Source of the DNA: Chrysochromulina tobinii
Lineage: Eukaryota
NCBI GenBank assembly: GCA_001275005.1
Contig: JWZX01003152.1
Span: 1 to 63,023 of the forward strand
Direction of reading: 5' to 3'
Length of the DNA stretch: 63,023 nt
In this document: positions 901 through 56,138 of the stretch, piece by piece
Layout of the letters: each line of letters begins with the position of its first letter
How positions within the stretch are numbered: position 1 is the first letter of the stretch
Translations under genes and position numbers: made by a program
The notes under the pieces: model-generated
What the model was told of the DNA's origin: nothing
Databases searched by the model: none
What the model saw: the letters and a program-made list of their open reading frames with translations, nothing else

Positions 901-2511
901 ATGCAGGCCACGATGGCTGCGCCCTCCACGGCGCCGCCGACGGCGCCGCAGCGCTTTGACCCGTCGGTCGATCTCGTCACCGCGGCGGACGCGCTCTTCG
1001 AGGCGCTCTTTCCGCTGCTCGACCGCGACGGAAGCGGCTGGGCCTCGGAGGAGGACGTCATCGCGGCGCTGATCTGCTCGGTGGGCACCGAGGAGCGCGC
1101 GCGCGTGGCGCTCGCTCGCGTGACCGAGTCGGGCCACGTCGATCAGCGATGCCTGCGCGAGCTCATCGAGGCGCAGATGCCGCCGCAGACGGGCGAGAAC
1201 GGCGCGCAGTGGCACGTGCGGCTCGTCCGCTTCGTGCTCGCGATCATCCGCGACTTTGAGAAGCGCGCAATCGACCGCGGCGACTTCGTCGCGTCGGCCG
1301 AGGGCCGCGAGGTCGCGCGCCACGTGCGCGAGATGGAGCAGCGCCGCGCCTTCGCGACGCTCGAGGCGCTCAAGAGGGAGCAGCACGGCGGCCTCCGGCG
1401 CGGCCAGGTGGCCGAGGCGCGCCAGTTCAACAAGGAGTGGACTGTGCGCATGGCGGAGTTCAACAACCACGCGCGGCGCGCGGTCGCCGAGCTGCGCGCG
1501 CGCCACGAGGCTGCCGTCGAGGGCTTCATCGCCGAGCATCGCCCGCAGATGCACGATCAGTTTAAGCGCACGCACCACGCGCAAGAGACGCTGGACGCCA
1601 AGTTCACGCTCACGCGGCTCACCCTCGCGGAGGAGTTCACCGAGGCGAACAAGTACGCGAAGCGCGTGCAGCAGCTGACACGGCGCGACGCCGAGGAGGC
1701 CGCCACGCTCAGCGAGCTCGCACTGCAGAAGAAGCTCGACGTGCTGCGCTGGCAACAGAACCTCGAGCTCCGCGGGCTCCTTGCCAAGGTCGCGCGGCTG
1801 CTCGAATGAGGGCTGGAGACCCCCCTGCCTACCCCCTGCCTTGCATGCAACTGCTCACCACGGCGCCTCGTCCCTCGTTCACACCTCGTCCCTCGTTCAC
1901 ACCTCGTCCCTCGTTCACAGGTCGCGAGGCTGCGCTCGGAGCACCGGGGCGCTTGGGAGGAGGGGCTGTCGCGGCTGGTGCTGAGTCAGCGAAACACGCT
2001 GCAGGCGCTCGATGCCAAGCAGAAGGTCGATTCGAGGCACGCTGCTGAGGCCGTCCGCAGGATGCTCGAGCCCGCGGCGACGCCCAAGGCCGAGCCAGCT
2101 GCACCCGTGCGTTCCAATCTCGCACTGCTCTCGCCGCGCGGTGGGGTCTATCGCGCCGTGGCGCCTGCCCACGCAGCAGCCGTGGCGCCCGTGCAGAGGC
2201 CCAGCCGAATGGTCGCCGCCGCCTCGGCGCGCGCCTTCTCAGCCGCCAGTGGGCGCGGCGGCGGCGTCGACATGAACACGCCGGCGCCGCCTAAAATATT
2301 CCTCACCGGGACAAGCGAGCTACGCCCGCCCTCGCCGCCCTCGCCCACAGCCGTTCACCCGCCGCGCCCGATCTCGAGCTTTCACGAGCCCGTGCAACTC
2401 GCACCACCTCCTCGACCCATCGGCTACTCCGCTGCCTCGCCGCGCACGCCGCGCACGCCGCGCGCTGGCAGCGTGCAGCTCCGAGCTCGCGTGCGTGGGA
2501 TCGAGATGTGA
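901..2511 (+). CDS. Coiled-coil protein with N-terminal EF-hand-like loop; exons 901-1788 and 1921-2511
   Basis: DRDGSGWASEED loop; phase-0 intron AAG|GTCGCG...TTCACAG|GTC joins ORF 901 to ORF 1978..2511 in frame. Confidence 0.75.
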
Positions 2512-11177: not shown

Positions 11178-11395
11178 AGAGTAATCTCAAGTCGTTGCGC
11201 GCAGAAGACAGCCGCTACCAGAAATCACGTTACGAGACTGGACAAAGTTTAGGCGCCACCGCACTCGTTCTCGTTGACTCTTCTCATCCAAAATGTTCTC
11301 ATCTTAGAGTTTAAGAGTAATCTCAAGTCGTTGCGCGCAGAAGACAGCCGCTACCAGAAATCACGTACGAGACTGGACAAAGTTTCGGCGCCACC
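11178..11395. repeat. Near-perfect ~83-bp direct repeat (11178-11260 and 11314-11395)
   Basis: AGAGTAATCTCAAGTCG...GGCGCCACC twice, with one indel and one substitution, 53-nt spacer. Confidence 0.92.
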
Positions 11396-42581: not shown

Positions 42582-42717
42582 GCGCTGTTCCTGTTGCGGC
42601 CTGAGGTTGATCCTTCTCGGATCATCGGATTTAGGATCATCGGATTTAGAGTTCGGCGCTGTTCCTGTTGCGGCCTGAGGTTGATCCTTCTCGGATCATC
42701 GGATTTAGAGTTCGGCG
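42582..42717. repeat. Tandem duplication of a ~60-nt unit with an internal 15-nt duplication
   Basis: GCGCTGTTCCTGTTGCGGCCTGAGGTTGATCCTTCTCGGATCATCGGATTTAG twice; GATCATCGGATTTAG extra copy. Confidence 0.9.
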
Positions 42718-49585: not shown

Positions 49586-50091
49586 TCGGTCAGATGTCTG
49601 TCTGAGATCTCGACGTCGGGCAGCTGAAGTGACGATCAGCCGACGGGGTGCATACAGGTGTACGAGTAGTCGTGCAGCGTGTTCCGAGGCTGAGTACCGC
49701 GCGTGTTGAACACCAGAGTTACACAAAGAGAAAGACGGATCGAGGATTTTAGGATACAACCACGCGCCCACACCATGAGTCCGGTCGAACAAACCAACCG
49801 CGAACACTGAATACGAACACACCGATCGCCGTCCTCTACATTTACGACCTCGTCTTCATGTACCCGTGTCGCGCCGGCGCCGCGTTCACTTCTGCCTCTC
49901 TGTCCATGCACACTGTCGTCACTCAACAAGCTACTCGCTCCATTGTCAGCCTGCTGCTGAAACTAAAGCTGTTCAAGACACCGCACGAGCCGCTCGGACC
50001 CCGAAGCACGGAAGCCGCACTCGCTCTCGCACTTGATTAGGAAGTTGTTGGTGGTTGATTTGTGGACTTGCCACATGAGGAAAAAGGTTCA

Positions 50092-52650
50092 ATGCCAGCC
50101 GACGAATCGCTAGTCGAGGCGTCCGTGAGCGACATCAAACGCGTGCTCAACCTCGAATCCATGGAGGTCTACCACAAATCGCTCACACCGTTGAAGAGCA
50201 GTTCGTTAGATAGCGCGCCAGATGAGGGCGAGCTGCGTGAGGTGATCGAGGAGCTTATCCGCACAGAGAGCACGTTCCTGCGAGACATGCGCTTCACTGT
50301 GAGGAATTTCGCTCTGCCGCTGCGCGAGTTGCTCGACGCGGCACAGGCAAGAGCCATCTTCTCCAACCTTGCGCAGATCCTCGAGCTGCACGCGCGCCTC
50401 GTGAGCGCGCTGCCAGAGCCGGAGGCACGCACCAACCTGCCGACGAGCTCTGCTGCGCGCTTCAGCAGCCACGCCACGTCGCTCGGCTCGCGGACGAGCG
50501 GCGGCGACGACGGCTGTGGCGGCGTGTGCGGCGCGCACGGCACGAGCTCTTCGTCTGTCGCGGCCAAGGCGCAGATCGTTGCGAGCGCCTTTGTCAAGCT
50601 ACAGCCCTTTTTCAAATGCTACACCTCGTACTGCGGCAACTACCCGTACGTGTCGGGGGCGCTGCTCAAGGCACGCAGCAGCCTTCGCGTGTCCTCCTTT
50701 TTGGAGGGCATGGAGCTCACGCACTCGATATCGCTCCAGGCCCTCTTGTTTCGACCGGTGCAGCGCTTGTGCGCCTACCCGCTGCTGCTGCAGCGGGCTC
50801 TCAAGCACGTTCCTCAGGCACACCGGCTGCATGCGCCGGTGGAGGAGGCCTTCAGCGTGATGCAGCAGATGGTGACGCAGGTGAACGAGCAGATGCGCGC
50901 ACAGGAGGCGCAGGTGCGCATGCTGTGCGCCCTCCTGTCCGACGTCACGAACGCGCCACCTGTCGAACATCTTCTAGCGCCCGATCGCTCTCTTGTGCGC
51001 GAGGCAGTCGTCCACATGAAATTGACGAAACTGACCAGCGGCAGCGCCTCTGGCAGCGCCTCAGGCAGCGCCTCTGGCAGTGCCTGTGCAGCAGCGGGGT
51101 GGCAGAGCGGCAGCTGGCTTGAGGGCGAGGATGACGACGCCTCGATCAGCGCTGCCCACCACGACGCCTCGATCAGCGCTGCCCACCACGACGCCTCGAT
51201 CCGCGCTGCCCACCACGACGCCTCGATCAGCGCTGCCCACCACTCGTTCAAGCGCTGCACCAGTACTCCCAAGCCCCTTGGCACGCCCTTGGCCGATGCG
51301 CTGCAGTGGGGGCGGCGGCGCGAGTACAGATGGTACGTGTTCAGCGACATGCTCATGGTCTGCCAGCCGCAGCTGAGCCTCTTCGGTGGCGAGAAGAAGA
51401 AGCTGGCGTGCCGAACCTTCTTTGAGCTGGCCGATCTGCGCGTCGTGCCGAGCACGGGCTCCACCCTCTTCCCACAGCCGGCTGCAGGCGTCGTGCCGAG
51501 CACGGGCTCCTCCCTTTTCCCACAGCCGCCTTCATCTCCATCGCAATCTCCATCGCAAACTCCATCACGAGAGGCTGATGGCGCCGTGTCGGGCCTCTTC
51601 GGGAGCATCAGCGCCACGGACGCCCAACACGGCGCCAAAGACGAGCCATGGACGCCCAACACGGCGCGGGGCACACCCGCAGGCTTGAGCCGCGTGCCTT
51701 CGAGCTTGAGCGCTCTCTCTCGGAGCGCCTCGATGAAGAGCGTCATCAGTGAGTGCTCGCGGAGCGCCTCGATGAAGAGCGTCATCAGTGAGTGCTCGAG
51801 GAGCGCCTCGATGAAGAGCGTCATCAATGAGTGCTCGAGGAGCGCCTCGATGAAGAGCGTCATCAGTGAGGATGAGGAGCTAGCCGAGGCGGGCGGAGGC
51901 AAGGCGCAGAAGCCCGAGGTCCTCCGCCTGATCTACCACGGCGCCGAGTACAAGTGCTGGGCCACCTCCGAGGCCGAGATGGCGGCCCTTGTGCACCAGA
52001 TTAGCCAGCTGCAGCGAGAGCATGCAATGCGGGTAGAGCGCAACTCGCGACGCTCGTTCTCGTTCAGCTCAGCCGATCGGCAAATGAGGGCCGCCGCAGA
52101 TTGTGATGCGCTTTGGACCCCCCCGCAGAGCCATGTGCCCGACGACACGCCGTCCCAGGGGCTTCCCAAGAGCCCGCACCACCCTGGACCCTCACCGCGA
52201 CATTCACATTCACATTCACACCACCCTGGACCCTCACCGCCCAACAACCTGCGGTTGCGGTGGGGCGGTATAGCTCGGCATGCGTTGCCCGCGTCGCTCG
52301 CATCCTCTCGGCCTGTGAATGTGAATGAGGCCTCGCTTGCATGCATCCGTTGCCCGCATGCATCGCTTGCATCCGAGGCCACGGTCGATGGCGCCGCCAC
52401 TTCCGCTGCACGCTGGCAGGCCGCGCATGCCACCGTCGCTGCGGCCCCCGAAGAGGAGACTCTACTAGACGTCCTTGCTGAGGCGGCCACCGCTTCTCGG
52501 CGTGCAAAGCGGACGAAGCACGCGGCAGCCATTCGAGTGCAAGCTGCCTACCGTGGCAGTTCATGCCGCCAGTCCGCCGCCACATTCACATTCACATCCA
52601 CTGGCCGCCAGTCCGCCGCCGTTGGCCGCCACTGCGCCATGCTGCATGGT

Positions 52651-52715
<65 letters not shown>

Positions 52716-55700
52716 TGAGGATGAGGACGAGGACGAGGACGAGGACGAGGATGAGGAGGGGGCGGCGGCGGAAGACGTGATTCTAGCCGTTGAGCCGGCG
52801 CCCACGGCGGCGCCCACGCCGCTGCGGCCGCCGTTTCGAAGGACGTCGATCTCCCTCGATCTCCCTCGCGGCGTCCATCAGAGCTCTCGATCTCCCCCGC
52901 GATCTCCTCGGAGGTTGACGCATGAGCTCGGGGAGCAGATTGCCAGATTAGGCGAGCTGCGTATCCGTCCGCTGCCGCCCGCAATGCCCGAGCCCCCGCC
53001 GGGGTATGAGCGCCGCCTCGGCGTGATGCCTCCGCCCAGGCTCTTCCCGTTACCCGTCGACAAGTGCGCGTCGGAGGGTTCCGTTCCCTCTCGGCCTGTG
53101 AATGTGAATGAGGCATCGCTTGCATGCATCGAGGGCTACATTCCCTCTCGGCCTGTGAATGTGAATGAGGCATCGCTTGCATGCATCGAGGGCTCCGTTC
53201 CCTATCGGCCTGTGAATGTGAATGAGGCATCGCTTGCATGCATCGAGGGCTCCGTTCCCACTCCCGCGCCAACGAGCGGCTCGGCGGCTTCCCCACTCGC
53301 TGCGATGCCCTCGATCTCCCACGATCTCCCTCGATCTCCCACGGCGCCACCGCCACTCCTCTCCGAGCTCGGCATCTCCCACGATCTCCCTCGATCTCCC
53401 GCGGCGCCACCGCCACTCCTCTCCGAGCTCAGCCGCTCGCCCGGCTCGTCGCCTCGAGCGTCGCCTCGGGCGTCGCCACGGGCGTCGCCTTGGGCTTGGC
53501 CACCGACGGATTGTGTATGGAGCATGCCCGGACACCCCTCGCCAACAAGAGCCTCACTTGATCTCCCACGATCTCCCTCGCCAACAAGAGCCTCACTTGA
53601 TCTCCCACGATCTCCCTCGCCAACAAGAGCCTCACTTGATCTCCCACGATCTCCCTCGCCAACAAGAGCCTCACTCGATCTCCCACGATCTCCCTCGCCA
53701 ACAAGAGCCTCACTTGATCTCCCACGATCAGTGGACACGCGCTTCGTTCATGCATCCATGCGCTTCGTTAATGAGGCCGACGATCGCCCATCAGTGGGCA
53801 CGCGCTTCGTTAATGAGGATGACGATGGCCCATCAGTGGACACGCGCTCGTGTATCATCCATGACGACGCATACGAAGCATCCGCCGCCGCGACGCGCGT
53901 GGCGGCGGCGACACGTGCGGAGAAGGCCAAGCACGAGCGCCGTAATGAGCGCCGAGCGTGCCGAGCGGCGGCAGAACGAGGCGCTGTACCGAGCACATCA
54001 GCGCCGCCCTTGTGGATGACGTTTGCGATCCAGACGCTGCAGCACGCGCAATCTCAATCCAATCTGGAGCACGCGCAGCTGAGCGTGCGGCTGGAGGAGG
54101 CACGTCGGCTCCTCGAGAGCGAGAGACAGGCGGCCGCTCGGCGCGAGGCTGCGCTGCGCTTCGTCAACAGGCTTCGTCAACAGGCGGCCGCGCGGCGCGA
54201 GGCTGAGCTGCGCCGCCAGATGCGTGAGCGCAGTGAAGCTGCAGAGGAGCGCGAGGCTTCGGTGCTCGCGGCGGCGCGCGCCCGGGAGCACGCGCTTCGT
54301 CAACAGGCGAGTGCCCGGGAGCACGCGCTTCGTCAACAGGCGAGTGCTGCCAAGCTGAGGGCTGAGGAGGCGAACGGCGCTCGGGATGACGCTCAGGACG
54401 GCGCTCGCGTGCCTGGCATTCGCGACGAGCGCCTTCGCGCGCTCCGAGCGTACTTCTCGCCTTCATACTCGACGCTCAGCACGACGCGCAAGAGCCCCGG
54501 AGGCCCGTCGAGCGCCGTCTCGAGCGCCGGCTCCGGCTCCTCCGCCTTTACGCCAGCGTCCTCTGCCACCTCACCGGATGCCTCGATGCCGCCCGAGTGG
54601 CCGGGATCTACAAGAGGTTCGTCAAGAGGTTCGTCATCGACGCCACCCGAGTGGCCGAGTTCGTACTGTGCGCCGCCCGCGCACCCTTGGAACGTACCGG
54701 TCGCTCTGCATGCAAGTGCTCACGATGACGCCCGCGCACCCTTGGGACGTACCGGTCGCCCTGCATGCAAGTGCTCACGACGGCGCCCTCCCCCCTCTCC
54801 CCACAGGTGCGCACCCTTGGGACTGGGTCGTGCCGGTAGTGCCGGTAGTACAGGTCGTGGACTTGTGGCTCCAGTACGCCGCGGCGACGCTCGTGCAGGC
54901 CCGTTGGCGCGGGCGTCTCACACGGCGCGCGCTCCCGAAGCATGAGCGCCGTGCTGAGCACGAGCGTCGTGCTGAGCATGAGCGTCGTGTCGAGCATGAG
55001 CGTCGTGCTGAGCATGAGCGCCGTGCTGAGCGGCCTTCTGTGCTCTTCGAGCAGTTGGAGCAGCTCCGGAAGTTTGTGCCGCCGGACCCGGGGCGATGGT
55101 TCACAGCCCTCTTCACACGCGTACCCCCCGCACTCGCGCGCTGCTGGCCGCCGCCTGCGGAGGCAGCCGTCCCCCTCCGAGCGCGCCGTGGTGAGCACTT
55201 GCATGCAGGGCTTTGGGAGGCAGCCGCCCCCCTCCGAGCGCGCGAGATCGTCGGCGAGATCGCCGGTGAGTCGTTCAAACCCCACAGCCTCGGTCTGGGC
55301 GCCGTCTCGGGCGACCTTCGCGATGTACTCTCTACCGGTACCGCCTCAGGCAGCACCTTGGAGGGCAGCTGCTCAAGTGCGAGCGCCGTCTCGAGCGTTC
55401 ACGGATTGGACTCGAGGGCGATCTCGCGGGCAATCTCGAGGGCAATCTCGCCAGACGGCGGCGCGCTGTCCAACGCCTCGCCCCGTGGTGCTGATGGCCT
55501 GCATGCAAGTGCTCACCACGGCGCGATGTCCAACGCCTCGCCCCGTGGTGCTGATGGCCTGCATGCAAGTGCTCACCACGGCGCGATGCCCAACGCCTCG
55601 CCCCGTGGTGCTGATGGCCTGCGTGCAAGTGCTCACCCCGGCGCGTTATCCAACGCCTCGCCCCGTGGTGCTGATGGCCTGCGTGCAAGTGCTCACCACG

Positions 55701-56138
55701 GCGCGCTGTCCAACGCCTCGCCCCGTGGTGCTGATGGCCTACATGCAAGTGCTCACCACGGCGCGCTGTCCAACGCCTCGCCCCGTGGTGGATCGCTGCG
55801 TGCCTCGCCGTGCGACACGGCCGAAGATGCGCTCGGGCTCGGCGCTCGACCTCGATGCCGGAGATGAGGCGCTTCTGTGGAAGGAGGACTGCCTGTGGAA
55901 TCAGAGGCAATCCGAGGCAATCAGAGGCAATCAGAGGCAATCAGAGGCAATCACGGACCTGCTGTGGAAGGAGGACTGCCTGTGGAACGAAGCGCTTCTC
56001 TCGGGCCGTATGACGCTCGCGAGCGCCGTCTCGAACGCCGAGGAGGAAGCGCCGTCGCGAGCGCTCGAGTGGAGCATCACCTCCGAAGTCTACCAGGCGA
56101 GCGACAGCAAGGTGACCTCGTATTACACTTTGGCCTGA
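50092..56138 (+). CDS. Dbl-family RhoGEF (DH + PH-like) with IQ motifs and many tandem repeats; predicted intron 54668-54806, 3' frame junction unresolved
   Basis: EELIRTE..F, IFSNL, Y..YC.NY, L.RPVQRL..YPLLL; IQ motifs AAIRVQAAYRG and AATLVQARWRG. Confidence 0.75.
53074..53259. repeat. 57-nt x3 tandem; the minus strand reads like an intron 3' end; extra copy at 52304-52347
   Basis: Minus strand TGCATGCAAGCGATGCCTCATTCACATTCACAG|GC. Confidence 0.9.
53536..53728. repeat. 39-nt x5 tandem built on GATCTCCC units
   Basis: Encodes PSPTRASLDLPRS x5. Confidence 0.92.
55460..55790. repeat. 60-nt x5.5 tandem carrying the TGCATGCAAGTGCTCACCACGGCG cassette
   Basis: Units are directly visible at 60-nt period. 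Confidence 0.95.
55875..55987. repeat. (AATCAGAGGC)n filler flanked by a perfect 26-nt direct repeat
   Basis: CTGTGGAAGGAGGACTGCCTGTGGAA at 55875-55900 and 55962-55987. Confidence 0.95.

Follow-up and report, generated by a model that had tools for sequence, protein, structure and literature searches.

The locus at 55875-55987 of the window (the whole 63,023-nt stretch of DNA that was analysed, from a freshwater haptophyte alga, with a GC content of about 63%) is a backward, likely translated member of a prolific family of insertions, each made of a target duplication plus a filler, which likely makes new introns. The ribosomal P0 protein encoded in the window has its best species-named hits in Prymnesium parvum (71% identity) and Emiliania huxleyi (67%), which, with the GC content and the freshwater and culture sources, suggests a freshwater Chrysochromulina, probably C. 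tobinii or a sister. The reading that we prefer, with a probability of about one half (0.52), is that a recent 87-nt insertion, namely a 26-nt target duplication around a piece of intron repeat, was left here by the repair of a staggered break and lies backwards and in frame in its gene, where it is likely translated. A reading of the DNA letters alone (the sequence-only reading) had presented the site as a wrong-strand intron, a look that about a quarter of such inserts show (25.9%). The interest rests on the family and on the control that its backward copies provide; the single locus is minor and the wrong-strand splice signals are not the point. Long-standing questions on intron gain include the source of new intron sequence and whether the AG|GT preference reflects targeting or survival. 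Here, the source of the filler is recognisable, the events are many and polymorphic, and the backward copies serve as an internal control.

The insert and its host gene

The sequence CTGTGGAAGGAGGACTGCCTGTGGAA, 26 nt in length, forms an exact direct repeat at 55875-55900 and 55962-55987 (a period of 87, the copies lying 61 nt apart), as the sequence-only reading had described, and this repeat is far outside chance expectation. The tandem array at 55899-55953 has the period of 10 that had been read, over 5.5 copies, but its regularity is incomplete, with one deviating unit and 95% matches overall. A 16-nt array pattern has five matches in the window, all inside the array, against 0.60 expected, and none of 100 shuffles reached five. 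The features of the locus and of the gene around it are as follows.

50059..56138, plus strand: host gene as modelled, with a RhoGEF domain near the start, a long repeat-rich tail, a weak IQ motif and a stop at 56136-56138
54617..54806, plus strand: predicted intron with second-family filler (TGCATGCAAGTGCTCAC...CCCCACAG) and a donor at either 54617 or 54629, joining the 50059 frame to the 54359 frame
55159..55243, minus strand: second backwards insert in the same exon, 57 nt (55171-55227) and in frame, with TGCATGCAAGTGCTCAC-family filler and a duplication
55835..55837, plus strand: extra base, GGG where protein P0001 implies GG, breaking the frame of the window 40 nt upstream of the insert
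55872..55958, minus strand: predicted GT-AG register of 87 nt, with its donor at the joint of duplication and filler, as in many sense copies
55875..55900, plus strand: 26-nt target duplication copy encoding LWKEDCLW and part of N, present as a single copy in alleles P0002-P0011
55893..55979, minus strand: predicted GC-AG register of 87 nt, on paper only, the one given by the sequence-only reading
55901..55961, minus strand: 61-nt filler, a 9-nt lead CAGGTCCGT followed by about 5.5 units of GATTGCCTCT, its plus-strand reading QRQSEAIRGNQRQSEAITD being free of stops
55962..55987, plus strand: other 26-nt duplication copy, matching for 3 nt onward with one mismatch

The insert lies in frame in the likely last exon of a plus-strand RhoGEF gene and, judged from the frame, is likely translated as 29 extra residues. 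That the plus strand is the coding strand, as first proposed, is likely on the basis of the Pfam domain, the alleles, the codon model and the frame joins. The gene matches PF00621 (RhoGEF) at E=4e-31 and PF00612 (IQ) at E=0.003, the latter under its cut-off, and the region of the insert has no Pfam match. The codon model was trained with 9850 codons from 52 domain stretches and called the strand correctly in 96.8% of 221 held-out 120-nt windows. In both flanks it weakly favoured the plus frame, which scored 1.5 and -3.4 where the best antisense frames scored -4.6 and -8.3; it mislabels some low-complexity flanks, such as those at 8717 in L022 and at 54708 in the window. Because the predicted second-family intron at 54617..54806 lies on the plus strand, this was taken as the transcribed strand. 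The extra G at 55835-55837 is likely an assembly error or a private allele; in P0001, which comes from another assembly, the frame continues through the insert to the stop at 56138.

A protein search with the 58 residues from the second duplication copy to the stop returned two proteins among 43 candidates. One of these, P0001, comes from an independent assembly and encodes the same insert. P0002 and nine other members of its cluster carry a single WKE(D/G)CLWN and no filler, so that 10/10 related alleles, which may derive from few populations, are empty at the protein level. The remaining indels of this cluster all preserve the frame. Presence and absence of the insert, with an empty allele, are thus polymorphic at the protein level, and the insertion is taken to be recent because all ten related alleles are without it.

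Four unstranded metatranscriptome assemblies gave many short contigs that stack on the 10-mer array with unrelated flanks; among the pieces listed from them, no contig spanned 55875-55987. One contig of RNA run X13, from another population, is without the 57 nt at 55171-55227. Its ends there are CC..GC, and the absence is hence read as an allele and not as splicing.

The claim that removal from AG|GC to AG|GC on the minus strand (55979..55893, 87 nt) restores the single-copy host sequence was borne out, as was the claim that the insert is in frame on the plus strand: the excised frame reads LLWKEDCLWNEALLSG. A second minus-strand excision, GT...AG at 55958..55872, had escaped the sequence-only reading and gives the same protein with one synonymous change. 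At the 87-nt insert, no GT/GC-AG register exists on the plus strand. Donor, branch-point-like word and acceptor are thus present in register on the minus strand, in two registers, at chance frequency: 25.9% of random 26-nt targets with this filler have a minus-strand register, a figure that counts any register, two together being rarer by chance. The minus-strand splice signals at this locus are probably a by-product, perhaps aided by a donor-like CAG|GT brought along from the source of the filler.

Several other repeats were observed in the window. At 55459-55790, a 60-nt unit combining host sequence with forward second-family filler is repeated 5.5 times, in frame and free of stops; its copy count varies among related proteins, and it may be translated or be part of an intron. 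In-frame units of 27-60 nt are numerous in the tail of the RhoGEF gene (51134-54350). Some have other fillers, either (ACATTC)n in one direction or the other or GATCTCCCACGATCT, and together these observations suggest further filler families and a tolerant region. A hand-picked in-frame count (13/13 inside an open frame, made without the 32-nt period at 51618 and the intronic repeats) carries no evidential weight. Exact 53-nt duplications with no repeat-family filler are found at 11178-11366 and 42582-42708, with periods of 136 and 74.

A family of duplications with intron-repeat fillers

The family was sampled from metagenome contigs as at least 123 stretches, 80 of them with full flanks; many of these loci are probably from the same culture, and L027 (51% GC) may be from another organism. 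Among the matches listed in the 123 stretches, 477 arrays were reduced to 384 by the removal of same-site repeats and to 342 by the need for enough flank. A duplication adjoins 158 of the 342 arrays listed, compared with 29 of 300 random sites, which, together with the splice registers reported below, agrees with the early proposal that the filler is associated elsewhere with introns that have duplicated flanks. After collapsing, at least 137 duplication events were counted, or at least 135 once double calls were removed. The 123 loci and the window together hold at least 192 array sites. In 134 kb distant from the search seeds, 21 sites were counted among the loci listed, a rough density of about 157 array sites per Mb; the 63-kb window has only one 10-mer array, and the arrays seem clustered by gene. 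No match to the 10-mer family was found in viral contigs. The E. huxleyi genome paper is said to describe tandem repeats of 10-11 bp in introns.

Among events from the matches listed, the duplications are 11-89 nt long, with medians of 30 nt for sense and 20.5 nt for antisense events. Fillers begin and stop at many phases of the repeat and differ in length, and each intron is partly host-derived. Two builds recur among sense copies. In one, the end of the exon is duplicated and the filler begins at the donor or just past it; in the other, the start of the exon is duplicated and the filler finishes in its own acceptor, often CCTCCCTCATCAG (at least 61 distinct flanks). The second filler family, ending in TGCATGCAAGTGCTCACCACGGCGC...CCCCACAG, occurs at at least 48 sites, of which 25 are sense on both sides and one, likely a mislabel, is antisense on both sides. 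At least two filler families besides the 10-mer leave the same scars. The source intron of the 61-nt filler in the window was not found among the loci sampled. At L007 and L066, the same backwards site in two assemblies has different filler and re-duplicated units, an indication that inserts keep changing after arrival. Introner screens that require end-to-end similarity would overlook this family, and for annotation it should be noted that peptides of the QRQSEAIRGN type are filler.

Orientation, reading frame and splice registers

Among the 192 sites listed, 70 are sense on both sides, eight antisense on both sides, 66 sense on one side, 11 antisense on one side and 11 mixed, with no call for 26. 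The sense excess of 70:8 among survivors can be explained by selection, and a real insertion bias is also possible. Neighbouring arrays less than 150 nt apart run in the same direction in 138 cases against three among the matches listed, an agreement that could reflect either a real sense bias or re-duplication at the site. The statistics below cover 95 sense events and 16 hand-curated antisense events. Thirty of the 135 events, having no orientation label, were left out of the sense set. The antisense set excludes L008, which looks sense, L066, which shares its site with L007, and the second L041 unit.

Read forwards, the 10-mer unit has a TGA in each frame; read backwards, it is free of stops. 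The 95 sense events are spread over the three length classes (34/30/31 by length modulo 3), and stops occur in all three frames in 81/97, a total that counts two double calls. Of the sense events, 55/95 can be excised in register as GT/GC-AG (null 27.5%), and 47 of them with GT (null 10.3%). At L052, a 90-nt sense insert with in-frame stops divides a kinase domain between Pfam profile positions 23-138 and 140-200; since the stops fall inside the domain, this insert must be removed if the gene works. Forwards insertions likely become new introns, as their registers and stops predict.

Antisense events behave differently with regard to frame. Eleven of the 16 are in frame (p=0.004 against one third and p=0.014 against sense events), as are seven of the eight with an independent coding signal in a flank (p=0.003). 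The five that are out of frame comprise one seemingly intronic event, one behind a stop, one seemingly intergenic, one poor match and one real exception, L047. This last insert (1875-2000, plus strand) is backwards, 104 nt long, with AG|GT at its joint, and out of frame in an apparent exon, which could be due to splicing, to a broken allele or to the copy number in the assembly. The backwards array at L069 (270-315) lies out of frame, apparently within a forward intron, and such cases are rare.

The sequence-only reading had treated the minus-strand splice signals as informative. This did not hold up: on the filler strand, an excisable register exists in only 4/16 antisense events (null about 20%, p=0.40) and is lacking in the other 12. 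A GC-AG register on the host strand makes splicing possible for seven of the 16. Because the backward copies show AG|GT or AG|GC only at the chance rate, the AG|GT preference points to survival and not to targeting. A clear splice-like joint produced by microhomology is seen at L035 (5216-5330, plus strand), where a backwards, in-frame 93-nt insert has a filler ending in the family acceptor that matches the target's own TCATCAGG.

That insertion is orientation-blind was upheld in so far as the filler lands against the direction of the host in 16 curated events, but not as equal rates, the survivors being 70 sense and eight antisense. The further step, from blindness to orientation to an event at the level of DNA, does not follow, since either orientation would also be expected if intron RNA were copied into a DNA break. 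The backward copies hence argue against reverse splicing into a host transcript and do not decide between DNA and RNA.

Mechanism, alternatives and known systems

Under the preferred reading, the break would arise from two offset nicks, and fill-in of its ends would duplicate 11-89 nt of the target (median 20-30). Before the ends are rejoined, a repair polymerase would prime on a few bases of homology and copy 20-200 nt from an intron elsewhere, most likely with DNA as the template, and the copied piece could land in either orientation. Selection would then sort the products. A forwards piece has stops in all frames but carries CTGAT words resembling branch points and, in many cases, a splice donor or acceptor; it would survive if the duplication supplies AG|GT or AG|GC, being spliced as a new intron or falling inside one. 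A backwards piece, which has no stop, would survive in exons if its length is divisible by three and the protein can accommodate the added residues. A fixed transposase cut is disfavoured because both duplication length and filler vary.

At each end, the junctions match the fillers of other loci over more nucleotides than under a simulated null: 2.97 nt compared with 1.83 (n=59) at one end and 3.98 nt compared with 1.51 (n=65) at the other. In sense copies, this homology is inflated by selection for splice signals. Microhomology is stronger at the 3' end of the filler in 30/44 paired events (p=0.015). Among 25 isolated events, the 3' end had 2.1 nt against 0.68 nt (n=8) and the other end showed no excess (n=7). 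All six antisense events scored at the 3' joint have 4-7 nt, against null means of 1.7-2.7. This asymmetry, unexpected from double-stranded DNA, is the main weakness of a DNA template, and it is the main hint for an RNA one.

The same scar and survival filter would also result if the template were intron RNA, either pre-mRNA or excised, reverse-copied from a nicked end as in target-primed reverse transcription, either a repair polymerase or an enzyme borrowed from a retroelement doing the copying. Target-primed reverse transcription typically leaves long and variable target duplications. We regard this route as unlikely. In its favour, the polarity of the microhomology follows the filler and not the host gene, with the 3' joint stronger overall and in all six antisense events scored, and several fillers begin exactly at GT (L036, L047, L050, L076, L100). 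On the other side, the 5' joint also has excess homology in the larger set (p=0.0009), and the asymmetry may stem from under-representation of intron starts in the comparison library. No poly(A), reverse transcriptase or source RNA was found, and some fillers, that of the window included, have bases upstream of GT that excised introns do not have. More speculatively still, the family could be an intron factory that works with no mobile element, in which repeat-filled intron RNA is reverse-copied into staggered breaks, primed at its 3' end and in either orientation; forward copies would become introns and then templates, and backward copies peptide insertions. If so, the backward copies would show the raw mechanism with no imprint of selection.

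True introners, i.e. short non-autonomous mobile elements with conserved ends, a dedicated enzyme and a target duplication, are improbable as the source. Many related copies do lie in unrelated genes (at least 192 sites in the 123 loci and the window), and common ends exist among the matches listed: CCTCCCTCATCAG with 61 distinct flanks, a GTGAGT-type lead with eight and the second-family core with 30. Introners are also described from marine Chrysochromulina assemblies in the available text of PMC9860276, and some dinoflagellate classes act in both orientations according to the part available of bioRxiv 2020.10.14.339549. However, the duplications here measure 11-89 nt, compared with 3-8 nt, fixed per class, in published introners as far as the accessible text of these sources goes. 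Filler starts, ends and lengths differ among copies, so that end-to-end similarity is absent, and no terminal inverted repeats are apparent by eye. Furthermore, in the accessible part of a 2025 screen (PMC12130899), the count for Chrysochromulina tobinii is 0 families.

It is very improbable that the insert is an ordinary intron of a minus-strand transcript or entered one by reverse splicing. The two clean registers would suit this, and the next downstream genes are on the plus strand, so that a divergent promoter could send RNA leftwards across the site. However, a register arises by chance in about 26% of cases, 12/16 antisense events have none and 11/16 keep the host frame; a 26-nt target duplication is not expected of reverse splicing, and the codon model gives no minus-strand coding signal.

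Addition of the repeat to broken ends by a telomerase-like enzyme with a fixed internal template would account for a short tandem unit of fixed polarity adjoining a break, but it is hardly tenable and was rejected: the commonest variant makes up only 501/1012 counted units among the matches listed, variants come in locus-specific runs, fillers include non-repeat intron ends, and at least two other filler families leave the same scars. Local slippage or an assembly artefact, thinkable in a gene rich in tandem repeats with a likely one-base error nearby, is the least credible and was likewise rejected, as the repeat occurs nowhere else in the 63 kb, is missing from the proteins of the empty alleles and is encoded in the same insert by the independent assembly (P0001).

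With regard to known systems, polymerase-theta end joining makes templated insertions, in which short copied patches are joined by microhomology at repaired breaks; it does not account for the strong preference for intron repeat donors and the strand asymmetry seen here. Neointrons of Daphnia pulex, in the available text of PMC4202315, are attributed to the repair of staggered double-strand breaks, with direct repeats of 4-12 bp and mostly unknown insert sources. They share with the present family polymorphic inserts, a direct repeat of the adjacent exon at the opposite end and secondary insertions inside young introns, whereas our duplications are 11-89 nt long, the filler can be recognised as belonging to a few families of intron repeats with splice signals, and there is a backwards in-frame class. 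Tandem genomic duplication of AGGT-containing exon sequence, as the accessible part of PMC3443670 presents it, likewise takes the donor from one copy and the acceptor from the other, and removal restores the coding sequence. In the present case, by contrast, the copies are separated by foreign filler, which often contributes one of the splice sites together with words that resemble a branch point.

Introners of Polarella, Symbiodinium and marine Chrysochromulina resemble the family in having repeated intron families with splice sites taken from the target duplication, some in both orientations, but the fixed duplications of 3-8 nt and the end-to-end similar copies given for them are not found here (bioRxiv 2020.10.14.339549, PMC9860276 and PMC12130899, each in its available part). 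One E. huxleyi family with '10bp terminal direct repeats' and 0 families for C. tobinii are given in the accessible part of PMC12130899. As in the introner elements of Micromonas, intron sequence spreads with no coding capacity; those, in the part available of PMC4540971, are described as inserting cleanly and only ever on the coding strand, in contrast to the target duplications and 16 antisense events described here. The accessible portions of PMC4540971 and PMC8469720 propose RNA routes with no target duplication.

No description of this duplication-plus-filler family was found in the literature searched, subscription papers being largely outside the search, and the use of a backwards class as an internal control appears new. 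Judging from the available text of both sources, the closest known precedent is intron gain at staggered breaks as in Daphnia combined with the tandem-duplication route (PMC4202315, PMC3443670).
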